From positions 520 to 64,519 of the forward strand of contig LVBW01000003.1 in the NCBI GenBank assembly GCA_001604585.1: DNA of 64,000 nucleotides, in the 5' to 3' direction. The stretch is from Puniceicoccales bacterium Verruco_02. Lineage in GTDB: Bacteria; Verrucomicrobiota; Verrucomicrobiia; Opitutales; Oceanipulchritudinaceae. This document shows positions 43,059 to 59,632 of this stretch, piece by piece. The notes below the pieces were generated by a model that searched no databases, was not told the origin of the DNA, and was given only the letters and a program-made list of their open reading frames with translations. Position numbers and translations under genes: made by a program. How positions within the stretch are numbered: position 1 is the first letter of the stretch; each line of letters begins with the position of its first letter.

Positions 43059-45260
43059 ATGTCACTGAGGCACAAGACCATACTGTTTGTCGCGCTAGTT
43101 CTCGCCATTCAGTTCGGCGGCCTGCTCCTTCTGGTCTTCCATACGCAGATGGAAGGCTTTGCACAACTGGAGGACGAGTTTATAGCCAAAAGCTGCGACA
43201 AGCTGCGCAACGCCGTCACTCAAGAAACCCGATCCTTGGCAAGAATTACGCAGGACTACCTGCGCTGGGACGATAGCTGGGCATTTATCGAAAGCGGCGA
43301 CGAGAGCTTTGTACATGCAAACTTCAGCGAAGAATCGATGGCGAACCTCGGGCTGGACATCTGCATATACATGCGTAACGAGGGAACCCTGCTAGCCGGG
43401 CTGGCAATCGACATGGAGACAGGAGCCTTCGCTAATGTGCCGGACTCTGTGCTGGCGCTTCTGGACGCGCGCCTCGGCCCGGCTTCGCCTGATAGGCAGC
43501 CACTTCCAATGAGCGACATTGCCGCACTGCCCGAAGGAGTGCTCTTTTTCGCCATACAGCCTGCCACCATGTCCGACGGCAGTGGACCCATCAATGGCTT
43601 TGCCCTCTTTGGCCGCTGGCTGGACATGGACATGCTGGCCCGCTTCGAGGAAACCAGCCACCTGAGCCTTTCACAGGCCCCGGACGGCATGGACTGGCCC
43701 GAATCGTCGGACCAGATCGAAAGGCCCGAAAAGAACCTTGCCCGTATAAGCATCAGCATTCTGGACAGCAAGGGGGGGAGAGTCTGCCTCATAATCGCAG
43801 GGACCGAGCGCAGCATATACACCCACGGGCAAAAGCTCTCCAAAGCATTCATACTCTGGGCAATGGGCCTCACGCTTCTCGAATCGCTCATCATCCTGCT
43901 CCTCATGCACAAGCTGGTGTTACGCCGCCTCTTCGGCCTAAGCGCGCAGCTACGCAGCATAACGAGCAGGGGAGACTCTTCCGTCCGCTTGCAGGAAGAC
44001 TCCCATGACGAGCTTGGCACACTGGCGGCGGACATGAACGAGCTGCTGGGCAGGCTGCACCAGACAGAGGAAGGCCTGCGCGAGAGCATCGCCAAGGAAA
44101 AGTCCGCCAGCCGGGCCAAGAGCCAGTTCCTGGCCAACATGAGTCACGAGATACGCACCCCCATGAACGGCATCATGGGAATGCTGCAACTTCTTGAGGA
44201 CACAGAGCTTGGCAAGACTCAGTTGGGCTATGTGACCACGATCGGCTCTTCCTGCGAGGTGCTGATGACGGTTATCAACGACATACTCAACCTCTCCAAG
44301 GTGGAGTCCGACGCTGTGCCTCTGGCCCGCGAGCCGATACTGCTCCAACCACTGCTCGACGAGGTGATGGGCATAGCGGCCACTCTTGGCGACACCAAGA
44401 AGCTGACCCTGGCCTGCGAGCCGGCACCGGACCTGCCAACGGCCATCACCTGCGACCCCAACCGCCTCAAGCAGGTGCTGCTGAACCTGCTTTCCAACGC
44501 CTGCAAGTTCACTGAAAAAGGCCACGTAAAGCTTAAGGTAAGCCCCGTCGCTGTGAACAAGAGCGGATACGAACTGCTATTCGAGGTCGAGGACACGGGC
44601 ATAGGCATAGCAAAGGAGCTTCAGGAGCGCATATTTGAACCCTTCGTGCAGATAGACTCCTCCTTCACTCGCAAGAGCGGTGGCACAGGGCTGGGCCTGA
44701 CCATATGCCGCAACCTGGTCCGCCAGATGGGCGGCAGCATCAGCGTCGAGAGCGCCCCGCGCAAGGGAGCGACCTTTCGCTTCAGCCTGAAAAGCCCCCT
44801 GACGGCAGAGACGCAGATTCATAAAAAGAACGAAGCCCTCTTTGACCCCGAAACCGCGGCAAAGCATCCGCTGAGAATCCTGCTCGCCGAGGACAACAAC
44901 ATTAACAAGACCGTGGCGCTGGCCATGCTGCGCAAGATGGGCTACTCGGCCGACCTTGCCAGCAACGGCATGGAGGCGCACAACATGGCCCTCGAGGGCG
45001 GCTACGATGTCATCCTGATGGACGTGCAGATGCCCCTGATGGACGGCCTCGAAGCAACGGAGCGCATCCGGCGCAGGCTGCCCCGCGACAAGCAGCCCAT
45101 AATAATTGCCCTGACGGCCCACGCCCTGCCAGACGAGGTGGAACGTTGCCTGAAGGCAGGCATGTGGAGGCACATGAACAAGCCCTTGAAAGTCCACATT
45201 CTGCACGAAGTGCTGGTGGATGCGTGGAAGGAACTTGCCAATCACAGGCAGGGAAGCTGA
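43059..45260 (+). CDS. Hybrid sensor histidine kinase / response regulator
   Basis: TM, an extracytoplasmic sensor region (CHASE4-like by recollection: ITQDYLRWDDSWAFIE), second TM. H-box SHEIRTPMNGI, N box LLSNACKFT, G boxes DTGIGI/GGTGLGL. C-terminal receiver ILLAEDNNINK...DVILMDVQMPLMDG. Confidence 0.9.
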   Translation: MSLRHKTILFVALVLAIQFGGLLLLVFHTQMEGFAQLEDEFIAKSCDKLRNAVTQETRSLARITQDYLRWDDSWAFIESGDESFVHANFSEESMANLGLDICIYMRNEGTLLAGLAIDMETGAFANVPDSVLALLDARLGPASPDRQPLPMSDIAALPEGVLFFAIQPATMSDGSGPINGFALFGRWLDMDMLARFEETSHLSLSQAPDGMDWPESSDQIERPEKNLARISISILDSKGGRVCLIIAGTERSIYTHGQKLSKAFILWAMGLTLLESLIILLLMHKLVLRRLFGLSAQLRSITSRGDSSVRLQEDSHDELGTLAADMNELLGRLHQTEEGLRESIAKEKSASRAKSQFLANMSHEIRTPMNGIMGMLQLLEDTELGKTQLGYVTTIGSSCEVLMTVINDILNLSKVESDAVPLAREPILLQPLLDEVMGIAATLGDTKKLTLACEPAPDLPTAITCDPNRLKQVLLNLLSNACKFTEKGHVKLKVSPVAVNKSGYELLFEVEDTGIGIAKELQERIFEPFVQIDSSFTRKSGGTGLGLTICRNLVRQMGGSISVESAPRKGATFRFSLKSPLTAETQIHKKNEALFDPETAAKHPLRILLAEDNNINKTVALAMLRKMGYSADLASNGMEAHNMALEGGYDVILMDVQMPLMDGLEATERIRRRLPRDKQPIIIALTAHALPDEVERCLKAGMWRHMNKPLKVHILHEVLVDAWKELANHRQGS

Positions 45261-45285
45261 TTCCTAGCCAGTATGGGGAAAGCCC

Positions 45286-46077
45286 TTACGACCTACGCCT
45301 GCGTACGATGCCAAATCCCAGAGCGGCCAAACCGGCAAATGCCGCAAGAGTGGATGGCTCGGGAACGGCAGTGAAATTGTCGAGCGTCGGGCTGCCCGAT
45401 GAGTCGAAGTAGAAAAATGCATGCAGCGACGAGTCGCTGGCCAGTCCGCTGTTCGCAAAAATCTGTGTGCCAGCAAGTATGGCATCCCCGGCGCTTCCAT
45501 CGCCATTGAGCTGAAAAGCCGAATAGGTCGCTAGAAAGTCCGAACCGTCATAGTTGACAGTCAGGGTGAGGAGCAACCAGTCGCCGTTGCTGTAAGCGGC
45601 GGGTGAAGGCACGGTGTTTAGCAGCGTGGAGTTGTCCCAGTAGCCAAGATCCGATCCAGAGGAATCAGCTGTGGAGTTCAGGTCGATGTACTGGCTGTCG
45701 GAATTGACGCCGAACAATATGGAATGCTCGGGATATATGATGTTGCCGTCTGGATTAGCAGAATTTGTGAAGCCGATGCCGCAGTATGTATTCGCCTTGA
45801 TGAAGGCACTGACGGTGTAATCCTGCCCACTGGCAAAAGTAATACCCTCGTTCAGAACCCAGGACTGGCCATCGAAGGACGAGTTCATCTGAATGGCACC
45901 GCTACCGTCAAAGCCACCGTCAGCAGTGTAGCTCGCGCTGCTGGACGAGTTCCCAAAGGATATGATTACGTTGAAAAGTGAGCTGTCGGCAGGATAGTCG
46001 AAATTGACGCTCACAGGATACACGGTGCTGGCGAATGCTAATGATGCGGCAAGGACGGCGATGAGATGTCTTTTCAT
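45286..46077 (-). CDS. PEP-CTERM sorting-domain secreted protein
   Basis: Signal peptide MKRHLIAVLAASLAFA, Ser/Asn/Gly-rich beta-type body, C-terminal VPEPSTLAAFAGLAALGFGIVRRRRS (PEP motif + TM + basic tail). Confidence 0.85.
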   Translation of the reverse strand: MKRHLIAVLAASLAFASTVYPVSVNFDYPADSSLFNVIISFGNSSSSASYTADGGFDGSGAIQMNSSFDGQSWVLNEGITFASGQDYTVSAFIKANTYCGIGFTNSANPDGNIIYPEHSILFGVNSDSQYIDLNSTADSSGSDLGYWDNSTLLNTVPSPAAYSNGDWLLLTLTVNYDGSDFLATYSAFQLNGDGSAGDAILAGTQIFANSGLASDSSLHAFFYFDSSGSPTLDNFTAVPEPSTLAAFAGLAALGFGIVRRRRS

Positions 46078-46210
46078 TGTGAGGTGTTGGTTTCAGAGGC
46101 AATGAAAGGCATTTTCTGAGCCTGTTCAAACAGACAAAACACATAACTCTGCATATAAACGGGATAATTGCGCTAACCAAGCTCTTGTGCTCTGATTGAG
46201 GGCAGGCCAC

Positions 46211-49045
46211 ATGGAACAGGGACACATACGCATCAAGGGCGCGCGCGAGCACAACCTCAAGAACATCGACCTTGAGCTGCCCCGCGGGAAGTTCATCGTA
46301 GTCACCGGTGTGTCCGGCTCTGGCAAGTCCTCGCTCGCCTTCGACACCATTTACGCCGAAGGCTACCGCAAATACATAGACAGCCTCTCCACCCGCGCAC
46401 GCGCCCTGATGGAACAGGTCCATAGACCCGACCTCGACTTTATCGAGGGCCTATCGCCCGTAATAGCCATCGGCCAGCGCAGCCGCTCGCCCGCCAACCC
46501 GCGCAGCACCGTGGCCACGGTAAGCGAAATTGCCGACTATGCCCGCCTTCTCTGGGCAATGTGTGGAACGCAGCTCTGCCCTCTTGACGGAGCACCCGTC
46601 ATCCGCCGCAGTCTCGACGACTGCGTGCAGCGCGTCCTTGAGGAACCCGAGGGCAGCCGCCTTGTAATCCTAGCCCCGCACATGGTGGCAAAGACGAGCG
46701 TACTTACCGACGAAATCGCCCACCTTCGCCAGCAGGGCTGGCAGAGGCTACGCATCGACGGGGCTTTGCACGAAATAGACGAGCGCGACATCCTACCCAA
46801 AACCCGCGCCGAGGTGCAGCTCGACATAGTGATAGACCGCATAGTGCTCGCTCCCGACCAGAGGGGCCGCATAGCGGACTCGCTAGAACTGGCCTTTCGC
46901 GAAGGGCAGGACCGCGCCATTGTCCTTGCGCAAAAGGACCGCGACGCCCCCTTTGTCGAAATCGCCCTGGCCCGCAACCTTTCCTGCACAAAGTGCGGCA
47001 CCGTGTATGAACAAGTAACTTCGCGCAGCTTTTCCTACAACCTGCCCGAGGGCGCCTGCACGGAATGCGGCGGCCTTGGCCGCGTCATGCGCTTTGACGA
47101 GTCGCTCCTAGTCCCCGACCCGAAGCTCTGCGTCAAAAAGGGCGCGATTAAGCCCTTCCGCATCGGGTCCAAGAAGATGATCATCCGCTACAACGCACTG
47201 TTAAAGCAGCTCGCAGAGCAGCTTCCCTACGACGCCGAGGCCCCCTGGGAAGAGCTGCCCGAAGATGTGCGCCACATCATCATGCACGGCAGCGGAGAGC
47301 GGCAGTTCGACTTCAAACTGCGCGGTGGCAAGCGAAAGCCCGAACGCATGGCCTTCCCCGGCGTAATGCCGGAGCTTGAACGCAGCCGCGCCGAGACTTC
47401 TAGCGAGGGCCTGCGCGCGCGCCTCATGGCATTTACGACAAACGCCCCCTGCCCTGCCTGCGGCGGGCGCAAGCTGCGGCCCGAGTCGCTGGCGGTAAAG
47501 CTCGACGGGCTGGACTATGAGGCGTTCATGGCGATGGACCTTGCGGCCGCGCTCGACTACGTGCGCGCCCTGCCAAAGAGGGTGCAGGGCGTGGCGCGGG
47601 TGGAAGAGGCGTGGAAGGGGCTGGAGCAGCGCCTTTCCTTCCTCGTGGAGATGGGCCTCGACTACCTATCCCTCGACCGCGAGTACAGCACTCTTTCCGG
47701 CGGCGAGGCGAGGCGCGTAAGGCTCGCCACCCAGCTTGGCATGGGCCTAGTAGGCGTTATTTACGTCCTCGACGAGCCGACTATCGGCCTGCACGCGCAC
47801 GACACCCGCCTATTAATCCAGCGCCTGCAAACGCTAAAGGAACGCGGCAACACGGTGCTCGTTGTCGAGCACGACCCGGACCTAATCCGCGCTGCGGAGC
47901 ACCTTGTGGAAATCGGCCCCGGTGCGGGCGCATCGGGCGGGCACCTGCTCTTTCAGGGGACTCCTGCCGATGCGCAAGGTTCGCCCCGCTCTCTGGCCGG
48001 TCCCTATCTATCGGGCCGCGCAAGGGTGGAGCGCAACGCGGAGCGCCTTGCCCCGACGGGCGACTGGCTCTGCGTCCACGGCGCGGCAGAGCACAACCTG
48101 AAGAGCATCGACGCGGCCTTCCCGGTTGGCCTTTTCACGGCGGTTACGGGGGTCTCCGGCAGCGGCAAGAGCACGCTAGTAAACGGCATTCTGGCCGAGG
48201 CTGCCGCGCGAAAGCTCAACGGCGCAAAAAGCATTCCGGGCCGTCACAGGGGCATTTCGGGCCTCGAACACTTCGACACGCTCGTTCGCGTGGACCAGAG
48301 CCCCATCGGGCAGAGTCCGCGCAGCAATCCGGCCACTTTCACAAAGACTTTCGACCTGCTCCGCACCCTGTATTCGCAAACTCCCCTTTCCAAGATTCGT
48401 GGCTACGGACCGGCCCGCTTCAGCTTCAACATGCGCGGCGGACGCTGCGAGCACTGCGGGGGCGACGGGCAGATCAAGCTCGACATGCAGTTCCTAGCCG
48501 ACGTTTACGTGGAATGCCCCAGCTGTCACGGGATGCGCTACAACCGCGAGACTCTTGAGGTGCGCTACAAGGGCGTATCCATAGGCGAGGCACTGAACCT
48601 GAGCGTGGACGAGGCTTACGAGCTGTTCAAGGCCGCGCCAAAGCTAGCGCAAAAGCTCGGCACGATGAGGGCCGTGGGCCTTGGCTACCTGAAGCTTGGC
48701 CAGAGTGCGGACACCCTTTCCGGGGGCGAGGCGCAGAGGCTGAAGCTTTCGCTGGAATTGTCGCGCCGCACTCAGGGACGCGCCCTGTACATTCTCGACG
48801 AGCCGACAACTGGCCTGCACTGGGCGGACATACAGCTACTGATCGACCTGCTTTTCAAGCTGCGCGACGCGGGCAACACAATCATCGTAATAGAGCACAA
48901 CACGGACCTCATCAAACTGGCCGACTGGGTGCTGGACCTAGGTCCCGGCGGTGGCCGCAGGGGCGGAACGCTGGTCTATTCCGGCACAGTGGCAGGGCTT
49001 GGCGACAGCAAGGAATCCCTGACAGGCCAAACGCTGCTCTTCTGA
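46211..49045 (+). CDS. uvrA: Excinuclease ABC subunit A
   Basis: [21 protein letters not shown], two ABC modules ([43 protein letters not shown]) and zinc modules (CTKCG...[20 protein letters not shown]...CPSCHG). The track start 46196 is TTG. Confidence 0.97.
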
Positions 49046-49050
49046 ACGGA

Positions 49051-49132
49051 GTTATACGGAGCTTATCGAGTTATACGGATTTCTTGTAAATCGCGATAAA
49101 CTACGGTAAACTCTGATAATATCCGTATAAAC
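49051..49132 (+). promoter_or_regulatory. Repeated TTATACGGA motif (2 direct + 1 inverted copy), a putative operator upstream of the ATPase gene
   Basis: GTTATACGGA at 49051-49060 and 49070-49079. Inverted TCCGTATAA at 49122-49130, ending 6 nt before ATG 49137. Confidence 0.4.
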
Positions 49133-49136
49133 GCTC

Positions 49137-50330
49137 ATGAATCCCGTAGAAAACCCCTTTTCGCCGGGTGCTGGCACCCAGCCTCCCGAACTGGCAGGCC
49201 GCGACGAACTTGTCCGTTACATGGACATTTCCCTGCAAAGGGTAATCATGAGCCTGCCGAGCAAAAGCGTGCTCATGGTAGGACTGCGAGGAGTGGGTAA
49301 AACTGTGCTGCTTGACCACCTAAGAGGCCGCGCCGAGGAACTTGGCGCTCAAACAATACGCATCGAGGCCCCGGAGCGCCGTTCCCTGCCTGCAATGCTG
49401 GCCCCACAGCTGCGGCAGGCACTATACCGACTTTCCCGAAATGAAAAAGCTGGAGAGCTTGCCCAACGCACGCTCAAAGCCCTGGCAGGTTTCGTCAAGG
49501 GCCTGAAGCTGAAGTATCAGGACATCGAACTGAGCTACGACATAGAGCCAGAGCCGGGCCTTGCCGACAGCGGAGACTTGGAGTTCGACCTAATCACGCT
49601 GATGGAATGTGCGGGACAAGCGGCCAAGTCGGCAAACTCCGCCCTTATCTTGTTTATCGACGAACTCCAATACGTTAAGGAAGAGGAGCTTGCATCCCTC
49701 ATAAGCTCCATGCACCGCATGTCCCAACAGAGACTGCCCGTCTGCATGGTCGGGGCGGGGCTTCCGCAACTTCGCGGCAAGATGGGCAAGGCCAAGTCCT
49801 ACGCAGAGCGCCTGTTCGAGTTCCCTGTAATCGGCCCGCTGGACGAGGAGTCAGCCCGTCTGGCCATATACAAACCCCTGCATGACGCCGGAGTGAAAAT
49901 AGAGGATGCGGCGCTAGACCTGATTGTAAAAGAAACCAAAGCCTACCCCTACTTCCTTCAGGAATGGGGCAAGCACTCATGGGACGTCGCGGAAACATCC
50001 CCTATTCGTGTGGAAGATGTACTATTTGCCTCCCGCTGCGCGATAGATACCCTCGACGAAAGCTTCTTCCGCGTGCGCTTCGACAGGTTGACTCCCCTTG
50101 AAAGGCGATACCTGCGAGCAATGGCCGAGCTTGGGCCTCTGCCCCAGAGATCGGGCGATATAGCAGAGCTGCTGAAGCGGCCCGTAACTTCCCTTGGCCC
50201 GACGCGGAACAACCTCATATCCAAAGGCATGATTTGGAGTCCGCAGCACGGCGACACGGCGTTCACCGTTCCCCTGTTCGACGAATTCATGAAAAGGGTC
50301 ATCCCCGGCGACAACTGGCGCGATGAATAG
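49137..50330 (+). CDS. AAA-type ATPase (Orc1/archaeal-ATPase-like P-loop) with C-terminal winged-helix-like region
   Basis: Walker A LMVGLRGVGKTVLL, Walker B ALILFIDELQY. C-terminal LTPLERRYLRAMAELGPLPQRSGDIAELL resembles a wHTH. Confidence 0.62.
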   Translation: MNPVENPFSPGAGTQPPELAGRDELVRYMDISLQRVIMSLPSKSVLMVGLRGVGKTVLLDHLRGRAEELGAQTIRIEAPERRSLPAMLAPQLRQALYRLSRNEKAGELAQRTLKALAGFVKGLKLKYQDIELSYDIEPEPGLADSGDLEFDLITLMECAGQAAKSANSALILFIDELQYVKEEELASLISSMHRMSQQRLPVCMVGAGLPQLRGKMGKAKSYAERLFEFPVIGPLDEESARLAIYKPLHDAGVKIEDAALDLIVKETKAYPYFLQEWGKHSWDVAETSPIRVEDVLFASRCAIDTLDESFFRVRFDRLTPLERRYLRAMAELGPLPQRSGDIAELLKRPVTSLGPTRNNLISKGMIWSPQHGDTAFTVPLFDEFMKRVIPGDNWRDE

Positions 50331-50387
50331 GGCTGGCCAACATGCACCCTCGTCAGCAATAATGCTCGGGCAGTCCTTCCTCCACGC

Positions 50388-52856
50388 ATGAACGACGACG
50401 ACCAGACCATTCTCGATGCCGGAGACTCCGGGCGGAATGTGCAGTCAGAACTCCACAGCGGAGACAGGCTTGGCGACTACGTCCTTGAGCAAATGCTGGG
50501 CGCGGGCGCGATGGGTCAGGTGTATCTGGCCAGGCAGACATTTCTCGACCAACGCTGCGCCCTGAAGGTGCTGCCGCAGGAACTATCCAAGAGTGCGGAC
50601 TTCACCCGCCGCTTCGCCAGCGAGGGACAGGCCCTAGCGAAGATGGACCACCGCAGCGTCGTGCGCGTCCTCAACGCAGGCGTGGACCGTGGCAGGCACT
50701 TCATAGTGCTGGAGTTTGTAGGCGGAGGAGACCTAGACCAGTACTTGCAGAAGCGGGGCGGAAGGCTGGACGAAAACGAAGCGCGCGAAATACTCGCCCA
50801 GATTCTGGAAGGACTTGCCTATGCGCACGCAAAAGGCATCGTCCACCGCGACCTCAAGCCCGCCAACATCCTGCGCAGTGAGGACGGACGATTCAAGATA
50901 AGCGACTTCGGGCTGGCCCTCGTTATGAACCGCGACTACGTGCAGGACCTAGTCCGGCGCAGCATCAGCGCGGCAGAGCTTGGCGCAGACCCGGACGCAA
51001 CACTCGTGGCCGATGCGCCCGGCGGCGGCGCTGACCCGGACGCCACCCTTGTTGCCGGAGCGCAGCCTCAGCGCAAGGCACCGGCGGACGCCTCCTCGGT
51101 TGTGGGCACAATCGACTACATGAGTCCCGAACTGCGGGCAGGGCGGGCGGCGGACGAACGAAGCGACATTTACGCCCTTGGCGTAATGGCCTACCTCTTC
51201 ATCACCGGGCGCAAGCCCATAGGCAGGGCAAAGGCCGCCAGCGTACTTAGGCCGGGCATATCCCCAAGATGGGACGAGTGGATAGACCGCTGCCTCGAAA
51301 TCGAACCCGCAGACCGCTTCCAGAGCGCGGCGGAAGCCCTCGAAGCCCTCGAAGGCACTGCGGCGCAAGCGGTGCCCATCGCGCCCGCTCCCATCGCTCA
51401 GGCTCCTGTTGAAGAAGTCCGCCCCCCGGCGGCTGATATTCCAGTAGGAAAGCCAGCGCCACAGGCTCCAATACCACAGGCATCCGCCAAGATCCGCCCC
51501 CCTGTTGCAAGCGCCAGCCCTACACCTGCTAAAGCAGCACCCCGGGCCAGCCAGACGCCGATTCCGGCAAATAACGGCGGCAGGCGAGTCTCCATGTGGG
51601 TAATGGCACTTGTCATAATCTGCGCGGCGATAGCCACGGGGCTGCTGATTGGCCGTATGCGGGGCAAGACCGCTTCTCCCGATTCTGTCAAAACCGCTGT
51701 CGATTCCCCGGCCAGACAAACGCCACCCGCGCCAGTGACTGTGCCGGAGACAAAGTCGGCTCCTGCCAAGGCCGAAGAGCCGAAGGAGGCAAAGCCAGCC
51801 CCTGTCCCCAGCCAGCCGCCCGGCAGCTCCCCCTCTTCGCCCGCGCCTGAGCAGAGCGCCGTTAAGGATATAATCACGCCGCCATCTTCACAAACGCCCC
51901 CGCCCAAGGCCGACACTCCAGCGGCAGTCGAGAAGACCCTGCCCGCAGCGGCAAAGCCAAGCACTTCACTGGCAACACCCGCTCCCGAAAAAGCCGCAGA
52001 ACAGACAGCGCCCAAGGTCGAACCCGTTCCTGCGCAGCCTTCCGCCAATAAGGCCGAGTCTCCCTTGCCCCCTGAGCAGAAAAGCCCCGCCAAGACCCCG
52101 TCTATGGCGAAAGCGCCCGCCCTCCCCAGCCCCGGCAGCGATGCAGTCGTGGCCATGCCCGGCGGCTTGAATATCGACATGGTGTGGATTGCCCCCGGTA
52201 GCTTTGCAATGGGCAGCGACGCTCTCGAAGGCGGGCGCGAAAAGGACGAGACCCGACATCAGGTGCGCATCAGCAAGGGCTTCTGGATGGCGCGCACAGA
52301 GCTGACTCAGGCCCAATGGACAGCGATTACAGGCAGTAACCCATCGCGTTTCTCCGACAATGGCGACACCCGCCCCGTAGAAAAGATAAGCTGGCAGGAG
52401 GCCGTGGACTACTGTGCAAGGCTGACAGAATTGACGCGCAAGAGCGGCAGCATACCCGCGGGCTACGCCTTCCGCCTGCCTACGGAGGCCGAGTGGGAAT
52501 ACGCCTGCCGCGCCGGCAGCCCAGCCGCTTATCCCGGCGCGGTGCGCGACATGGCTTGGACAATGGCAAACTCTGCCCGCGGCACCCAGCCTGTGGGGCA
52601 GAAGCAGGCCAACCTATGGGGCCTTTACGACATGCAGGGCAATGTGGCGGAGTGGTGCCTGGACTGGTATTCGCCATACTCGGAACAGGCACAGACGGAC
52701 CCGCAGGGGCCAAAGGATGGCCGCTTCAAGGTGGCCCGTGGCGGTAGCTGGCAGCAGGGCCTGCTCCAGAGTCGCAGTGCATCGCGCAACAGCTTTGCGC
52801 CGGGCGACAGGTGGAACAATCTGGGAATGCGCCTAGTCCTTGCCCCGCAGCAGTAG
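50388..52856 (+). CDS. Ser/Thr protein kinase - TM - Pro/Ala-rich linker - FGE/SUMF1 (formylglycine-generating-enzyme-like) domain fusion
   Basis: Kinase motifs GAGAMGQVY, ALKVL, HRDLKPANIL, SDFGLA, GTIDYMSPE. TM VSMWVMALVIICAAIATGLLIG. C-terminal WIAPGSFAMGS...RVARGGSW...GMRLV. Confidence 0.87.
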   Translation: MNDDDQTILDAGDSGRNVQSELHSGDRLGDYVLEQMLGAGAMGQVYLARQTFLDQRCALKVLPQELSKSADFTRRFASEGQALAKMDHRSVVRVLNAGVDRGRHFIVLEFVGGGDLDQYLQKRGGRLDENEAREILAQILEGLAYAHAKGIVHRDLKPANILRSEDGRFKISDFGLALVMNRDYVQDLVRRSISAAELGADPDATLVADAPGGGADPDATLVAGAQPQRKAPADASSVVGTIDYMSPELRAGRAADERSDIYALGVMAYLFITGRKPIGRAKAASVLRPGISPRWDEWIDRCLEIEPADRFQSAAEALEALEGTAAQAVPIAPAPIAQAPVEEVRPPAADIPVGKPAPQAPIPQASAKIRPPVASASPTPAKAAPRASQTPIPANNGGRRVSMWVMALVIICAAIATGLLIGRMRGKTASPDSVKTAVDSPARQTPPAPVTVPETKSAPAKAEEPKEAKPAPVPSQPPGSSPSSPAPEQSAVKDIITPPSSQTPPPKADTPAAVEKTLPAAAKPSTSLATPAPEKAAEQTAPKVEPVPAQPSANKAESPLPPEQKSPAKTPSMAKAPALPSPGSDAVVAMPGGLNIDMVWIAPGSFAMGSDALEGGREKDETRHQVRISKGFWMARTELTQAQWTAITGSNPSRFSDNGDTRPVEKISWQEAVDYCARLTELTRKSGSIPAGYAFRLPTEAEWEYACRAGSPAAYPGAVRDMAWTMANSARGTQPVGQKQANLWGLYDMQGNVAEWCLDWYSPYSEQAQTDPQGPKDGRFKVARGGSWQQGLLQSRSASRNSFAPGDRWNNLGMRLVLAPQQ

Positions 52857-53754: not shown

Positions 53755-54855
53755 CTAGATCTGGATTTGTTCCACTATCTCCAGCCCGTGGCCGTCGAGG
53801 GCCACCACCCTGCGCGGACTACTTGAAAGCAGGCGTATCTTCGCAAGGCCCAACGCGGCCAATATCTGTGCGCCAGTGCCGTATCCGCGCATGTCCACGG
53901 GGCTTGGCTGCACACTGCCGGGAGAGTCAGCCGCGGGCACCTGAAGACCCGCGTTTTCGTGGCTGAGGTAAACAAGCACTCCACGCCCCTCCCTAGCTAT
54001 GCGTTCCAAAGCTTTTCGAGTGGAAGAAAGGCCACCGGGCAGGTCTTTCTTTGCGAAAAGATCGCTAAGCAGGTTTTCGGAATGCATACGAACGAGCACG
54101 GGAGCTGCATCCAGTTCGCCCATACTTAGGGCAAAGTGCAGGCGGGCGTCTATACGATTGCGAAATACATGCAGAGTGAAGCTGCCGTATTCGCTTTCAA
54201 AGGGTTCGCGACGCAGTTCCTCCACGAGGCGTTCGCGGCGGGTGCGGTATTCGATGAGGCTGGCAACGCTGACCATCTTCAGGCCGTGGCGGCGGCGATA
54301 CTCCACAAGCTGGGGCAGACGGGCACAGCTTCCGTCATCGTTCAATATCTCGCATATCACAGCGGCCGGGGCAAGACCGGCCAGCCGGGCCAGATCCACG
54401 GCGGCCTCGGTATGCCCCGCCCTCTCCAACACTCCGCCGGGCCTTGCGCGCAGGGGGAACATGTGGCCGGGCTGGGCCAGTTGTGCGGGGTTGGAAGTGG
54501 GGTCGCCCAGCACCTTGGCGGTCTTCCAGCGGTCCATCGCGCTGATGCCCGTTGTGACGCCTTCTGCGGCATCGACGCTTACCGTGAACGCAGTGCCGTG
54601 GCGATCGCGGTTGACCTTGGTCATTTCCGAGAGGCCGAGTCGGGCTAGTTGTTCGCCAGTGAGCGGCACACAGATGAGGCCGCGCGCGTGCAGGAGCATC
54701 ATGTTGATGTGCTCGGGCGCGAGGCGGTCCGTGGCCACGACAAGATCGCCCTCGTTTTCGCGCTTTTCGTCGTCGGTCACGATTATGGGCTTTCCCGCGG
54801 CCATGTCGGCAATGGCCTCTTCGATACTGTCAAAAACGCTCTCTACTCCCTGCAT
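53755..54855 (-). CDS. ribB: 3,4-dihydroxy-2-butanone-4-phosphate synthase fused to a degenerate GTP-cyclohydrolase-II-like domain
   Basis: Start at ATG 54855 (MQGVESVFDSIEEAIADMAAGKPIIVTDDEKRENEGDLV). RibB motifs intact (HGTAFTVSVD, GHTEAAVDLARLAG). The C-terminal RibA-like half lacks the Zn-binding cysteines (see finding). Confidence 0.85.
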   Translation of the reverse strand: MQGVESVFDSIEEAIADMAAGKPIIVTDDEKRENEGDLVVATDRLAPEHINMMLLHARGLICVPLTGEQLARLGLSEMTKVNRDRHGTAFTVSVDAAEGVTTGISAMDRWKTAKVLGDPTSNPAQLAQPGHMFPLRARPGGVLERAGHTEAAVDLARLAGLAPAAVICEILNDDGSCARLPQLVEYRRRHGLKMVSVASLIEYRTRRERLVEELRREPFESEYGSFTLHVFRNRIDARLHFALSMGELDAAPVLVRMHSENLLSDLFAKKDLPGGLSSTRKALERIAREGRGVLVYLSHENAGLQVPAADSPGSVQPSPVDMRGYGTGAQILAALGLAKIRLLSSSPRRVVALDGHGLEIVEQIQI

Positions 54856-55087
54856 GTTAGCTCGTTTCTGACAGCGCAATGACTGCTCTGCAAGCGTGGG
54901 AATAGTCATGATGCGTAATGCGGCAGGCTGCCTATCACGGCATTGTTCGCAATGCTGCGCCATATTGTCTCACTAAAAAATCCCTCACCCTACTCTCGTC
55001 ACAACCGGGACATTGCGGCACAATTCCACAATGGAGCAAATCACGCTTGTACCTTGCATATAATGCACTTACAGAAAGCGGGGCGAA

Positions 55088-55103
55088 TGGCACGAAGCGT
55101 GCA
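55088..55103 (+). promoter_or_regulatory. Candidate sigma-54 (-24/-12) promoter of the hsp20 tandem
   Basis: TGGCACgaagcGTGCA vs consensus TGGCAC-N5-TTGCA, with canonical GG/GC spacing, about 60 nt upstream of ATG 55162. Confidence 0.5.
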
Positions 55104-55161
55104 ACAGTCCTTTTGCAAGCAATTGAACCGGAACAAACACATTAACGAAAGGAGCCTGACA

Positions 55162-55575
55162 ATGAAACTTATACGCTACGACTACCCCGCACTTCCCAGC
55201 GCCCGCGACTTCGACCGCATCTTCAACGAATTTATGGCCGCTGCACCGCGCTTTGGCGGATTGTTCGAGAACGCGGCCGGCCAGCGCATAGCGGCAGACC
55301 TATACGAGGACGAGGGCAACGTGTATGCGCGCTTCGAACTGCCGGGCTTTCGCAAGGAGGAACTGGGCCTTCAGCTTGAGAACTCCGTGCTTACTCTGAA
55401 CGTCGAGCGCAAGGGCGACAAAGAGGGGCGCAGCAGCTTCAGCGCAAGTCGCTCCGTAAGCCTGCCCGACGGCTTGGATGCAGAAAGGGTTAGCGCAAGA
55501 CACGAGGACGGAGTCCTCACCGTAACCTTGCCGAAGAAACCCGAGATCAAGCCACGCAGCATCAAGATCGCGTAA
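55162..55575 (+). CDS. Small heat-shock protein (Hsp20/alpha-crystallin family), copy 1
   Basis: 137 aa from ATG 55162 with AGGAG 8 nt upstream. ADLYEDEGNVYARFELPGFRKEEL...RHEDGVLTVTLPKK alpha-crystallin core. The track ORF from 54943 is over-extended. Confidence 0.85.
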   Translation: MKLIRYDYPALPSARDFDRIFNEFMAAAPRFGGLFENAAGQRIAADLYEDEGNVYARFELPGFRKEELGLQLENSVLTLNVERKGDKEGRSSFSASRSVSLPDGLDAERVSARHEDGVLTVTLPKKPEIKPRSIKIA

Positions 55576-55672
55576 TGCACTTTCCGGCAGGGCCGGACCA
55601 AGGAGGCTCCGGCACCTGCCGCCATTCTACATCACACAAGTAAAACCATTATACAACAAGGATTTAGCAGCA

Positions 55673-56020
55673 ATGAACAATACACTTGAACAGGGCGTCG
55701 CAAGGATGCGCCCCTACTACACAAGCAGCGAAAACGAACACGCCTACGAGGTGAAGGTTTACATGCCCGGTGTCAGCCGCGAAAACATCAGCATCAACCT
55801 TGAAAAGGGCGAACTATCCATCAGCGGCAGCCGCAGCAGCGTACCGGCAGAATGGCGCACCCTTAGCCGAGAGAGCGCAAGCGCCGATTACCAGCTACGG
55901 CTCGTGCTGAATGTGGAAATCGACGGGGACAACATCGGCGCAAGCTGCGAAAACGGCGTTTTGACGCTGAATTTGCCAAAAGCCGAGTCGCTAAAACCTC
56001 GTAAAATAGAAATAAAGTAA
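55673..56020 (+). CDS. Small heat-shock protein (Hsp20 family), copy 2
   Basis: 115 aa: YEVKVYMPGVSRENISINLEKGELSISG...CENGVLTLNLPKAE. Confidence 0.8.
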   Translation: MNNTLEQGVARMRPYYTSSENEHAYEVKVYMPGVSRENISINLEKGELSISGSRSSVPAEWRTLSRESASADYQLRLVLNVEIDGDNIGASCENGVLTLNLPKAESLKPRKIEIK

Positions 56021-56030
56021 GGTCTGGCGA

Positions 56031-56172
56031 CGATTTTGATTAACATTGGGAACAAAATCGTTTTCATGGGACTCACAACTATCGAGTTGTCAGTTGGCTG
56101 ACTTGGGAGAGTCAGCCTGGGAGACAGAGCATATGGGATGCCGGGGGTGTTGGGAGACGCCCCCGGCTTTTT
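56031..56172 (+). ncRNA. Candidate structured RNA with repeated (U)GGGA motifs in hairpin loops and linkers (Csr/Rsm-decoy-like), or a structured 3' UTR
   Basis: Six TGGGA copies within 56047-56155 (two more follow at 56186 and 56192). Hairpins 56031-56060, 56075-56090, 56096-56117 and 56140-56167. The last is followed by TTTTT. Confidence 0.45.
56140..56172 (+). terminator. Rho-independent terminator
   Basis: GCCGGGGGTGT / ACGCCCCCGGC stem (11 bp including one G-U), hexaloop TGGGAG, then TTTTTA. Confidence 0.8.
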
Positions 56173-56288
56173 ATGTACGTGTAATTGGGACTGGGAGCCA
56201 TATACAGCGCATTGCGGCGTGGAATGAATGGGTAAATGCCTGCACGCTCTTGCAAGAATGGGCTTACACAGGCTAGGTTCCATGCATC

Positions 56289-57659
56289 ATGTTCGACCCC
56301 ATCAAGGCCATCATAGACTTCACCGCACACGCCAGTGTTTCAGCAGACCCGGAGGCCAAACCAGGCATCGAGGGAGCCGTCAAATTTGTCGGAAACTTGC
56401 TTGAGAAGGAGCTGGGCTGCACAGTCGAAGTGGCGCCCACGGCCGGGCATCCCGTCGTCATAGCAAAGCGCGAGGGCAGGCCCGAATGGCCGCATGTTGT
56501 CATATACGGACACTACGATGTGCAGCCCGCCGACCCGCTGGAGGAATGGCATACGCCGCCCTTTGAGGGCGTGGTGAAAGATGGGGAGCTTTTTGGCCGC
56601 GGGACGGCCGACGACAAAGGCCCGGTGATGGTCCACATCGCCGCGATGGCCCGCCTTCTCGAGCGCCGCCCCGACCTGCCCCTGCGCGTAACCTTCCTAA
56701 TCGAGGGCGAGGAGGAGATTGGCAGCGTGAACCTCGCCTCGGTCATGGAAGCGCGCAAGGCGGAGCTTTCGGGCGAATTCCTGCTTATGAGCGACACTAC
56801 GGGCATCGGGCGCGACGACGAGTCCATCACCACGGGCCTGCGCGGCATCTCCGCTCTGGAGGTTCGCCTTCGCGGGCCACGGCAGGATCTGCACTCGGGC
56901 TTTCACGGCGGGCCGGTCATGAACCCCGTGCGCGCACTGGCAAAGCTCTGCGCCAGCCTGCACGACGAGGATGGCCGGGTGAACATTCCGGGCTTTTACG
57001 ACGAAGTGGTGCCGCCGCAGGACTGGGAGCGCGAGGAAATGGCCCGCCTCGACCGCGACCCCGAGGATTACCGAAAGCTGCTGGGGGTGCCCGAGCTATG
57101 CCCGCCGCCGGACTTCGGGGTGTTCGAGTCGCGCTGCTTCGGGCCGACTTTGGAGTTCAACGGAATCGGGGGCGGATATCAGGGCAGTGGTTCAAAGACC
57201 ATCATCCCGGCGCGGGCATTTGCAAAGATAAGCTGCCGCCTCGTGCCCAATCAGGACTCGGCAAGGATTCTGGACCTAGTCGAGCAGACTTTGCGCGAGC
57301 GTTGCCCCAAGGGGGTGACAATGGAGGTGGAGCGGCACCACGGAGGCGACCCGTACGTGGTCCTGCCGCCGCATCTTTCGGGCGAGCCTGCCGACACGGC
57401 CAAGGGGCGCGCCTTCAGAGCGGCGGATCTTGCCATTCGCGAGCAGTTCGGTTCCGCACCGCATTACTTGCGCGAGGGCGGGAGCGTGCCGATTTTGAGC
57501 GACATAAAGCGCATTCTGGGCATGGACGCCTTGATGCTCTCGGTGGCCTTGCAGGATTGCAACATGCACAGTCCCAACGAGAAGCTGGATCTCACGGTGT
57601 TTGAGCGTTGCTCAAGGGTGTCGGAGAAAATTCTGGAGGCAGTGGCCGACGGGGCGTAG
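56289..57659 (+). CDS. Peptidase M20 family dipeptidase
   Basis: VVIYGHYDVQPADPLEEWHTPPFEGVVKDGELFGRGTADDKG, EGEEEIGS, and a dimerisation/lid domain. 456 aa. Confidence 0.85.
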   Translation: MFDPIKAIIDFTAHASVSADPEAKPGIEGAVKFVGNLLEKELGCTVEVAPTAGHPVVIAKREGRPEWPHVVIYGHYDVQPADPLEEWHTPPFEGVVKDGELFGRGTADDKGPVMVHIAAMARLLERRPDLPLRVTFLIEGEEEIGSVNLASVMEARKAELSGEFLLMSDTTGIGRDDESITTGLRGISALEVRLRGPRQDLHSGFHGGPVMNPVRALAKLCASLHDEDGRVNIPGFYDEVVPPQDWEREEMARLDRDPEDYRKLLGVPELCPPPDFGVFESRCFGPTLEFNGIGGGYQGSGSKTIIPARAFAKISCRLVPNQDSARILDLVEQTLRERCPKGVTMEVERHHGGDPYVVLPPHLSGEPADTAKGRAFRAADLAIREQFGSAPHYLREGGSVPILSDIKRILGMDALMLSVALQDCNMHSPNEKLDLTVFERCSRVSEKILEAVADGA

Positions 57660-57741: not shown

Positions 57742-58389
57742 TCAGAACCATACAGACGGTTTTGTAAAGCTACCCGAAGAGTCTTCCATTGAGTCTGGAA
57801 ACTGAGCCGCCTTAAGCTGCTCCCATCGAACACCGTTCTTGTAGAAACTAGCGGCATCCTGAAGACCTGCACTTGATCGTATGGCCTGCCTACCCGGCCC
57901 CGATAGCCGCTGGGGATTGAGCACCCCGACAGGTTTCTTCAACACTTCCACTACCATTTTGATGGGCGTAATCAGATCGGAATCCCCCGTGACAACTATC
58001 GCGGCATCAAACCTGTTGTAAAACGCGTCAACGAGAAGGTGCGCCCCAAGATTGACGTCGGAACCCTTTTCTTCGGTTTTGAAAACCTCGATTGTACTCG
58101 GAGGAGGGTTGACAACCTTTGCGCGGACCTTCCGGGTCCTGAATATGCCTTCGATAATGACAAAATTCGGCAGGGTACGAAGTGCCCTCCAGTAAACATC
58201 CTGCCGTACAGGTTGATCAGGATCGCCTAGAAGGGCCGAAACTCTGGCCGTGAAGTACTTGGTTGATACGATATGGTTCTTAGGGAACGAATTCTGAACA
58301 AGAGAAACAGGATTCAACCATCGTAGAGGAGTGCCCTTGACCGCCGAAAAATACATATTGAACCCGTCTATGTACAGTATGGTTCTCAT
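57742..58389 (-). CDS. NYN-domain (PIN-like, LabA-type) putative ribonuclease
   Basis: Start at ATG 58389: MRTILYIDGFNMYF...EEKGSDVNLGAHLLVDAF...AAIVVTGDSDLITPIK (the conserved acidic residues of NYN). Confidence 0.75.
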   Translation of the reverse strand: MRTILYIDGFNMYFSAVKGTPLRWLNPVSLVQNSFPKNHIVSTKYFTARVSALLGDPDQPVRQDVYWRALRTLPNFVIIEGIFRTRKVRAKVVNPPPSTIEVFKTEEKGSDVNLGAHLLVDAFYNRFDAAIVVTGDSDLITPIKMVVEVLKKPVGVLNPQRLSGPGRQAIRSSAGLQDAASFYKNGVRWEQLKAAQFPDSMEDSSGSFTKPSVWF

Positions 58390-58606
58390 ATTATGCCACC
58401 TGAACCATGTACAATGCAAGGGCGGCCCCCGAAGAAGCCGCCCTGCGTCCTGCCACCGAAGTGGACAGGAGGGATGTTGTATAAAGGATCGACATTTTGC
58501 CGCGTAGGTCAAGGGGAATCATATCAATGCCTGTTAACTAACACGCATTGGCATGAATGTCACACATTTGGAATAAGTGATGCAATCGAAAAGCGCATAC
58601 CGCCCT

Positions 58607-59632
58607 TTACAACATCTCCAGCTGGCCTGCCTTGCCGCTTGGGATAAGGCCCAGCACCAGCCAGCCCTTTTCGGTCAGGACACGCCCCTGCGGAGTACGC
58701 TGCAAATAGCCCTCCTGAATAAGATACGGCTCGTGAACCTCCTCCAAAGTCTGCTCATCCTCCCCCACAGCCACGGCCAAAGTACTCACACCCACGGGGC
58801 CACCCTTGTAATGACGCGCCATCAGGCCGAGCAAGCGTTTGTCCATCTCGTCCAAGCCATTCTCGTCAATCTCCAACAGCTCCAGCGCCGCCGATGCCAC
58901 CCGGCGCGTAATCCGCCCATCGGCACGCTGCTGGGCAAAGTCGCGCACAAAACTCACAAGATTGTTCGCAATGCGCGGAGTGCCACGTGCGCGCCCGGCA
59001 ATCTCCTTGGCCCCACCAGCGTCAATCTCTATACCCATGAGTGAACAACTGCGCGTCACTATCCGCGCCAGCACATCTATTGAGTAATAGTCCAGCCGCG
59101 TCTGCAAGGTGAAGCGACTACGCAACGGCGCGGTAAGAAGACCCATGCGCGTTGTCGCCCCGACAAGGGTGAAACGCGGCACATCCAGACGCACACTACG
59201 GGCATTCGGCCCCTGATCGAGCATGATGTCGATGCGGAAATCCTCCATCGCACTGTACAGGTATTCCTCGACGTTCTTGGGCATACGATGAATCTCGTCG
59301 ATGAAGAGAATGTCCCCCGTCTCGAGACTGGTCAGCATACCCGCCAGATCGCCCGGCTTCTCCACGACCGGTCCGCTCGTAATGCGAACTGTGCGCCCCA
59401 TCTCGTTGGCCAAAATGTGCGCCAAAGTGGTCTTGCCTAGCCCCGGAGGCCCCGAAAGCAGAATATGGGACAAAGCCTCGCCACGCGCCTTCGCAGCGCC
59501 CGTCATCACTCGCAGCCTCTCCAGCGTACGCGGCTGCCCGGCAAAATCGCTAAAAGACACAGGGCGCAACGCCACATCCACGCGCTCGTCGCGCTTGAGC
59601 GCCTCGCCAAGATACTCCTTGCCAGTCTGCAC
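58607..59632 (-). CDS. ruvB: Holliday junction branch-migration helicase RuvB
   Basis: [40 protein letters not shown], and a winged-helix C-terminal domain. GTG start. Confidence 0.96.

Follow-up and report, generated by a model that had tools for sequence, protein, structure and literature searches.

The DNA analysed here is a 64-kb stretch from Puniceicoccales bacterium Verruco_02 (contig LVBW01000003.1), referred to as the window and with all positions numbered within it, and the element of interest lies on its + strand in the spacer between a tandem pair of genes for small heat-shock proteins (sHsps), hsp20-1 and hsp20-2, and a gene for an M20 peptidase. Read from the sequence, the spacer is bounded by the hsp20-2 stop at 56020 and the peptidase ATG at 56289. 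The gene calls of an earlier sequence-only reading of this DNA stand, as the flanks contain two HSP20 genes (PF00011) and an M20 peptidase gene (PF01546). The first, hsp20-1 (55162–55575, + strand), encodes an sHsp of 137 aa, its PF00011 assignment having been made on the identical gene in the related locus L001 (related loci carry L numbers throughout). The second, hsp20-2 (55673–56020, + strand), also of PF00011, encodes a short sHsp of 115 aa, the element always being 3′ of its stop, and the two proteins form a conserved two-sHsp system. Comparison of related loci shows the element to be a conserved + strand RNA of about 150 nt with a predicted fold, tied to the hsp20 pair and ending at its own terminator.

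What had first drawn attention to the spacer was a repeated pentamer, TGGGA, reported eight times on the + strand, and all eight copies are present at the positions reported (56047, 56067, 56104, 56118, 56134, 56151, 56186 and 56192). Across the whole window TGGGA occurs 86 times on both strands, below the shuffle mean of 120.5, and 51 times on the + strand, making it a rare 5-mer; about 0.1 copies would be expected per 150 nt of one strand, against the eight observed at 56047–56196. The Poisson probability of at least eight copies is about 2e-13, or about 3e-8 once multiplied by all positions, and the cluster is the densest that any 5-mer forms on a single strand of the window, although the word itself is rare. 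The heptamer TGGGAGA is found four times in the 64 kb, three of them inside the hsp20-2/peptidase spacer. The cluster is real and far beyond chance. The three hairpins that had been folded by eye are likewise all where they were placed, and the last of them, taken together with its T tract as an intrinsic terminator, is the sole terminator-like site that a terminator scan detects in 54800–56500. A 155-nt stretch folds at −68.3 kcal/mol (minimum free energy z = −6.4), and none of 200 shuffles folds as well.

To establish which gene the element belongs to, contigs encoding hsp20-2 homologues were collected and their genomic contexts compared. The same spacer sequence lies 3′ of the tandem hsp20 pair in five further Opitutales lineages, making six with the window, and their hsp20-2 identity to the window is 92% in L002, 70% in L003–L006, 63% in L011 and 59% in both L007 and L019. 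The gene that follows varies: the window has the M20 peptidase there, L003 a HAD hydrolase and L007 an enoyl reductase, and in L019 a glycosyltransferase gene on the opposite strand is convergent and ends 25 nt past the element. Because the downstream gene differs or is convergent, the element belongs to the hsp20 pair and is in general no leader of the next gene. Three origins had been left open by the sequence-only reading, namely an independent small RNA (sRNA), a processed 3′ untranslated region (UTR) of the heat-shock operon and a leader or attenuator of the peptidase gene; the comparative data favour the second and lead us to reject the third. In the window alone, a leader, attenuator or riboswitch of the peptidase gene would look attractive, as an aptamer-like conserved core is followed by a terminator upstream of a gene on the same strand, but the changing downstream genes, together with the lack of conservation between the terminator and whichever gene comes next, refute it as a general explanation and leave it next to no likelihood.

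The architecture of the element was derived from an alignment (A1) of seven sequences from the six lineages, with the consensus structure computed by RNAalifold. As a whole it is a 3′-UTR RNA domain reaching from the hsp20-2 stop to the end of the T tract (56021–56172, + strand), conserved in six lineages and found by a covariance model only behind hsp20-2. It opens with stem-loop 1 (SL1; 56029–56062, +), an AU-rich stem with both-sided changes in five of its nine pairs, whose loop holds the conserved sequence UUAACA-WW-GG(G)AACAAA (56040–56056) and with it TGGGA copy 1. RNAalifold then places P2 (56071–56087, +), a short helix ACUCA/(Y)GAGU that closes a variable loop and adjoins copy 2 (56067); this helix is weakly supported, having one-sided changes only and 88.6% of cells paired, and some lineages offer an alternative pairing, ACAACU/AGUUGU.

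The centre of the element is a near-invariant core of 53 nt, GAGUUGUCAGU.GG.UGA.UUGGGAGA.UCA.CCUGGGAGACAGAGCAUAUGG (56084–56136, +), delimited by identity across the lineages. Within it RNAalifold predicts P3 (56088–56126, +), in which UGUC at 56088–56091 pairs with GACA at 56123–56126, and P3 encloses P4 (56096–56117, +), a 9-bp hairpin described before as SL3, with the apical sequence UU-GGGA-GA (copy 3). All four P3 pairs are invariant and hence beyond a covariation test, while P4 is paired in 100% of cells, with one pair changing from C-G to U-A, another alternating between U-G, C-G and U-A, and a loop that is invariant and fully unpaired in the prediction. The internal loop between the two helices has AGUN on its 5′ side and UGGGA (56118–56122, copy 4) on its 3′ side. 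A conserved single-stranded linker, GAGCAUAUGGGAU (56127–56139, +), carries copy 5 and is invariant up to AUAUGG, and leads into the intrinsic terminator (56140–56172, +), recognised by the terminator scan, whose GC-rich stem of 12 bp is capped by a GGGA loop (copy 6) and followed by a T5 tract; the hairpin at 56140–56167 and its T5 make up no more than the final 33 nt of the element. Copies 7 and 8 (56186–56196, +) are past the terminator and outside the conserved element; L002, the 92% relative, keeps a single one of the two, and the remaining lineages have neither.

Conservation is concentrated in the core, whose identity to the window is 91–100% across the lineages, compared with 65–73% for the hsp20-2 coding DNA (91% in L002), 51–70% for the 5′ part of the tail (86% in L002) and about 50% for the 100 nt that follow the terminator, as measured in the four lineages whose coding sequence is less than 75% identical (89% in L002). 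In the consensus structure 91.4% of cells are standard pairs, against 37–51% when the 3′ partners are slid by one to three columns. Both-sided pair changes number eight, against a shuffle mean of 3.5, a count that none of 500 shuffles reaches, and compensatory changes occur in SL1 (five of nine pairs), in P4 (C-G to U-A) and in the upper stem of the terminator. The strand is fixed as + by invariant U-G pairs in P4, which would be C-A mismatches on the other strand, and by the one-sided T tract, and a conserved peptide is ruled out by indels, L011 carrying 13 extra nt and L007 lacking 2. The proposal of a + strand, multi-hairpin non-coding RNA that displays GGGA in its loops and linkers and finishes with an intrinsic terminator is borne out by conservation with covariation.

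The eight TGGGA copies have fared very differently, with three to four of them conserved. Copy 3 (UUGGGAGA, UGGGAGA in the apical loop of P4) and copy 4 (CUGGGAGA, UGGGAGA on the 3′ side of the P3/P4 internal loop) are conserved in all lineages. The G-run of copy 1 in the SL1 loop is also kept in all lineages, although L019 reads UGGAAC so that only GGA is universal there, and copy 5 (AUAUGGGAG, in the linker) is conserved in most lineages, L007 having GGGG. Copies 2 (56067), 7 (56186) and 8 (56192) are lineage-specific, and copy 6 in the terminator loop is replaced by GCAA in L003 and by GAAA in L007 and L019, all GNRA tetraloops, and by a longer loop in L011 (CGUUACG region). The two UGGGAGA copies are 14 nt apart and are predicted to be unpaired in all six lineages (P 0.57–1.0), with the UGGGA of copy 4 having an unpaired probability of 0.57–0.91 in the ensemble.

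A further feature of this part of the RNA is the invariant arrangement of GGGAG (56119–56123), a 9-nt spacer and AUG (56133–56135) directly before the terminator, which resembles a ribosome-binding site with a start codon, L007 having GGGG at copy 5. This could be a mimic of an initiation region. The short open reading frame (ORF) that would begin at AUG 56133 was considered and set aside, as it would reach the terminator without meeting a stop codon, and in relatives indels disrupt any conservation of the peptide.

At a distance from the window similar to that of L007, other hsp20-2 subclades have different 3′ tails of 110–150 nt in place of the window's type A element, and these were sorted into type B (L012–L014, L021, L024), type C (L022, L023) and type D (L025–L028), with tails located for example at L012 2263–2385, L021 10358–10478, L022 866–1003 and L025 3355–3478. 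The subclades of L008/L009 and of L015–L017 have a plain terminator only and no element. The terminator GGCCGGGGnnnCA-GGGG-UGnnnCUCCGGCC is common to types B–D; its apical loop, CA-GGGG-UG, is conserved, and its upper stem shows compensatory changes. A UAUGG(G) motif is common to types A–D, immediately preceding the terminator in B and C and lying close to the tail's 5′ end in D, and a motif resembling AAYAWUGGGAWA near the start of the tail is common to types B–D and A. Start-like arrangements similar to that of the window are present in types B and D. Types B–D have many U/A-GGG-U/A motifs, and their tails contain 4–8 GGG runs against 0–1 CCC runs (GGG runs number 5–7 in type A and 7–8 in type B). 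GGA is present two to four times per tail, GGGU and GGGG being what is kept, and is not in excess, as a hand estimate from composition gives about 3.7. On these comparisons the tails of types B–D may be functional analogues of the window element.

A covariance model, R1, built from type A gives bit scores of 96–112 on type A, 25 and 21 on type B, 19.6 on type C and 15.4 on type D, the scores on B–D coming mostly from the terminator and the UAUGG motif. Over 129 kb searched on both strands R1 finds no other copy, and no second one in the 64-kb window, the only further matches being two weak ones on the minus strand (E 0.65 and 0.87) that overlap the same element. Among 185,579 species genomes a pattern scan picked out only two Opitutales metagenome-assembled genomes, one already known and the other the new lineage L019, a scan of metagenomes gave one chance match without hsp20 (L020), and a scan of viral contigs and plasmids gave none. 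Assemblies with a type A element include GCA_016928295.1, GCA_023459515.1 and JBAZHO01, and the sequence of the window is met again in SRR29904084. The element is, to judge from these scans, rare and restricted to this clade of uncultured Opitutales.

The operon that carries the element is preceded by a sigma-54-type −24/−12 promoter, TGGCACGAAGCGTGC (55088–55102, + strand), identified by the pattern TGGCAC-N6-TGC and active by inference from that pattern, which has only two matches in the whole window. Wherever a related locus extends far enough, the same pattern is present 60–85 nt upstream of hsp20-1 (L001, L003–L007, L019, L021 and L023), and a fuller form, TGGCACG-N4-RTGCA, can be recognised at L003 2391–2405, L007 201–215, L019 1334–1348, L021 9442–9456 and L023 13–27. 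Because this promoter is kept upstream of hsp20-1 across the subclades examined, the small heat-shock operon of this Opitutales clade appears to be dependent on sigma-54. No gene for an enhancer-binding protein was identified near the operon, and a consensus scan found no sigma-70-like site in 54800–56500. The conserved TTAACA of the SL1 loop was considered as the −35 of a separate sigma-70 promoter and rejected, there being no consistent −10 across lineages by eye or by scan. Most simply, the promoter, hsp20-1, an intercistronic hairpin (55585–55621), hsp20-2, the element and the terminator would all be parts of a single transcript. The hsp20-2 product has nearly no N-terminal arm before its alpha-crystallin domain, a C-terminal IEI motif and an acidic isoelectric point (pI) of 5.5.

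As to what kind of RNA this is, no Rfam family of any type reaches its gathering score in the window, none appears at E ≤ 10 in 54900–56400 and none at E ≤ 1 in seven orthologous loci; as far as sequence comparison can tell, the element is a real and previously undescribed RNA. Its architecture fits the class of regulatory RNAs that derive from the 3′ ends of bacterial messenger RNAs (mRNAs) (PMC9438474). The ROSE and fourU thermometers of hsp20 genes are also structured RNAs attached to small heat-shock genes, but they are 5′ UTRs that mask a ribosome-binding site, whereas the element is 3′ of both hsp20 genes and has no Rfam match. In Salmonella, the rsr-rtcBA operon is a sigma-54 stress operon with the non-coding RNAs YrlA and YrlB, which are bound by the operon's protein Rsr. 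The hsp20 operon resembles it as a sigma-54-type stress operon with a structured non-coding RNA beside protein genes, but there is no similarity of sequence or structure, the element has no tRNA-like module and the proteins are different. A tRNA-like reading of UUGGGAGAG, which resembles a D-loop, was tried and dropped, ARAGORN finding no tRNA or transfer-messenger RNA gene.

The sequence-only reading had filed the element as a decoy of the Csr/Rsm type, in which GGA loops sequester a protein of the CsrA/RsmA family. There are real likenesses to CsrB, CsrC, RsmX, RsmY and RsmZ, as several GGA motifs on one strand are exposed in loops and linkers (in an apical loop, at a second site 14 nt off and in the SL1 loop), the RNA ends at its 3′ end in an intrinsic terminator, and the sister tails retain a short G-rich motif although their scaffold has been exchanged. 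In L019 the SL1 loop even contains AUGGA, a canonical A(N)GGA, and CsrA itself is found in most phyla and is widespread in Planctomycetota (PMC13443453). The filing is nevertheless not supported. No Rfam Csr/Rsm covariance model matches, and the 153-nt transcript has just six GGA, three to four of them conserved; the exposed and conserved ones in the P4 loop, the P3/P4 internal loop and the SL1 loop stand in a U-G-GGA context, only the L019 SL1 loop departing from it, so that the repeated motif is UGGGAGA and not A(N)GGA, though the operon's own ribosome-binding sites read AAGGA. The scaffold, stems included, is invariant over the 53-nt core and not drifting, and where sister clades have replaced the scaffold GGA is not kept, their tails being rich in GGG runs without an excess of GGA. 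Csr/Rsm RNAs are genes with their own promoter, dependent on GacA/UvrY in proteobacteria, whereas the element is part of an mRNA 3′ UTR, and the promoter scan of 54800–56500 described above, in which a GacA box was not searched for, gave it none of its own. For CsrA, tblastn of the window and related loci, DNA amounting to about 2% of a genome, gave only matches with E of at least 0.97, and the literature contains no statement either way on CsrA in Verrucomicrobia or Opitutus. Taken together, a true Csr/Rsm-type decoy seems improbable.

We tentatively favour the reading that the element is a docking platform in the 3′ UTR for a multimeric factor that reads exposed G-runs, with the RNA acting as a cis target or as a decoy. 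The tail would be made whenever the hsp20 operon is induced, because no separate promoter is visible, and would dock a probably multimeric RNA-binding factor recognising exposed U-GGG-A/U runs. By way of the factor, the stress response would be linked either to what becomes of the hsp20 mRNA (the RNA as cis target) or to the pool of free factor (the RNA as decoy), and candidates for the factor are a CsrA-like protein, the operon's own sHsps or some other protein. This reading is preferred because the motif is repeated in one orientation and displayed in the loops of a rigid scaffold whose stems are constrained in sequence, and because exposed G-runs persist where sister clades replace the scaffold, types B–D keeping GGGG in the apical loop of the terminator hairpin despite a replaced tail. 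Further G-runs are present in the A-rich loop of SL1 and in the linker before the terminator. The repetition in one orientation and the invariant stem sequences suggest contacts beyond simple base-pairing. The CsrA-like reading discussed above and the sHsp reading discussed below are specific versions of this docking-platform model.

The main rival, which we regard as possible but rather doubtful, is an sRNA of the CpxQ kind that comes from the 3′ UTR and acts by base-pairing, giving a single operon two products. The tail, cut from the hsp20 mRNA or accumulating as a stable fragment, would use UGGGAGA and AGAGCAUAUGGGAG against C/U-rich sites of target mRNAs or of a second small RNA. The A-rich loop and the U-tail would suit an Hfq-type chaperone. 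The element shares the terminator of its mRNA, lies between the stop codon and that terminator and is conserved beyond both the coding sequence and the neighbouring sequence, and its conserved unpaired stretch directly before the terminator hairpin is at the usual seed position of 3′-end RNAs (PMC9438474). CpxQ is similarly located, between the stop codon of the stress/chaperone gene cpxP and its own terminator, is better conserved than the coding sequence and is co-produced with a stress protein (PMC9438474), but the motifs of the element are G-rich and repeated instead of a single C/U-rich seed, and its stems are invariant. G-rich seeds would be unusual, given that ribosome-binding sites are themselves purine-rich, and RNAs of this kind normally tolerate drift in their stems, whereas P3 and P4 are invariant. 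Against 50 initiation regions of the window the best duplex is −34.8 kcal/mol, compared with a mean of −34.3 kcal/mol for shuffled seeds, a weak test that covers about 2% of the genome, and pairing with the initiation regions of the hsp20 genes themselves lacks conservation: CUGACAA, which could pair with UUGUCAG of the core, is seen by eye between the ribosome-binding site and the AUG of hsp20-1 in the window and is absent in relatives. A purely structural tail acting in cis, protecting the hsp20 mRNA from 3′ exonucleases or setting how efficiently transcription terminates, with G-runs that are merely compositional (through Rho evasion, for example), would account for the very stable fold, for the strong terminator kept across types A–D, for all tail types being G-rich and C-poor and for the fact that the related hsp20 loci L008 and L015 manage with a plain terminator. 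It is unlikely, as protection requires structure and not sequence, yet the loops, internal loop and linker are invariant over 53 nt in lineages whose coding sequences have diverged to 65–73% identity, and the terminator loop, which does behave as a structural loop would, varies freely (GGGA, GCAA, GAAA).

In Escherichia coli the sHsp IbpA binds its own mRNA (PMC10474464, PMC10410725), and by analogy Hsp20-1 and/or Hsp20-2 might bind the tail of their own mRNA and be titrated from it by unfolded proteins, as IbpA is on its 5′ UTR. Besides this precedent, the link between the element and the tandem hsp20 pair is strict, tail types switch together with the hsp20-2 subclades and both systems have a two-sHsp operon whose mRNA also carries an RNA element that could serve as a sensor of free chaperone. 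The IbpA site, however, is in the 5′ UTR and overlaps the translation start, whereas the element is in the 3′ UTR and its binding is putative, the mechanism is so far demonstrated for IbpAs of gamma-proteobacteria alone (PMC10474464), vertical descent by itself would equally make tail type and subclade vary together, and hsp20-2 is acidic; such autoregulation is accordingly a long shot. A broader proposal, of low probability, is a heat-shock-coupled decoy or ribonucleoprotein scaffold, in which sigma-54-type induction would flood the cell with UGGGAGA sites that capture a global regulator (CsrA-like or a new reader of G-runs) or assemble with both sHsps. If true, this would be, to our knowledge, the first such RNA decoy in the Planctomycetes–Verrucomicrobia–Chlamydiae (PVC) superphylum and the first hard-wired into a chaperone operon. 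Lastly, the GGG tracts, of which there are at least four when the 5′ arm of the terminator is included, might form an RNA G-quadruplex that switches with potassium or temperature in competition with the hairpins. The abundance of GGG over CCC runs in types A and B and a long-loop motif, G3-N11-G3-N13-G3-N2-5-G4, conserved in type A speak for it, but there is no canonical (N1-7) motif, the G4Hunter score of 0.93 is below the usual 1.2 and not the maximum of the window, the long-loop motif is absent from types C and D, the hairpins that hold G-runs in their loops are backed by covariation and the conserved U and A beside the G-runs would be left unexplained, making a G-quadruplex switch very improbable.

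Several points weigh against the docking platform as well. Comparative support comes from only seven sequences of six lineages, and P3 together with seven of the nine P4 pairs never varies and is uninformative for covariation. Co-transcription with the operon and stability of the tail are both things that we infer, the acidic hsp20-2 product gives no hint of RNA binding and the tblastn search for CsrA gave no candidate within its limits. The near-invariance of the 53 nt would fit a compact aptamer-like tertiary fold or a dual pairing role equally well, and most RNAs known to come from the 3′ ends of bacterial mRNAs work through base-pairing, so that the prior favours the main rival (PMC9438474).

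RNA regulation in Verrucomicrobia is little known, with eight sRNA families counted for the whole PVC group (PMC9029176). Against this background the element is a testable candidate, being a single-copy element on a defined stress operon with a sharp invariant core and two identical exposed heptamers, and the sister lineages with different tails or none provide natural negative controls. If a partner for the docking platform were found, this would reveal how a chaperone operon is coupled to post-transcriptional control in a bacterium outside the model phyla, and if that partner were the sHsps, the RNA-binding role recently found for these proteins would extend beyond gamma-proteobacteria. Should the element prove only a stabiliser, it would still be a new RNA family for annotation, of local interest, in six uncultured Opitutales lineages.

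Some other candidates within and around the element were examined and rejected. A kink-turn in the P3/P4 internal loop does not fit by eye, the GA positions being wrong, and the likeness of UAACAAGG to the 3′ end of 16S rRNA is a 9-mer match to a 1.5-kb RNA that is expected by chance at an estimated 0.7 per 120 nt. Upstream of the peptidase gene, CTGCACGCTCTTGCA (56236–56252) was considered by eye as a sigma-54 promoter, but it is without the GG dinucleotide and its spacer is one base short; this sequence is largely kept in the 92% relative L002 only. The neighbours at 43059–52856 and 58607–59632 are generic (a hybrid histidine kinase with CHASE4, UvrA, an AAA ATPase, a Ser/Thr kinase fused to an FGE-sulfatase domain, and RuvB) and none of them hints at a link to the element. 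On the − strand, the ORF at 57742–58512 has no Pfam match at E ≤ 1e-5 and shows NYN/LabA-like motifs by eye (GSDVNLG, VTGDSDL), making an RNase-fold protein possible; it is not syntenic with the element in relatives.

The hsp20 operon has a second structured feature in the spacer between its two genes, where RNAfold of 55577–55672 gives the GC-rich hairpin mentioned above (55585–55621, + strand), which is not followed by a T tract and presents AAGGAGG, a perfect ribosome-binding-like sequence, in its loop. The spacers between hsp20-1 and hsp20-2 in type A loci are 93–111 nt long with a strong GC-rich hairpin, compared with 56–60 nt and no hairpin in types B–D, and comparable intercistronic hairpins are found at about 2908–2945 in L003, about 708–742 in L007 and about 1836–1862 in L019. 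In L007 and L019, G-run motifs such as GGGGUAAAGGGAAC occur ahead of this hairpin.

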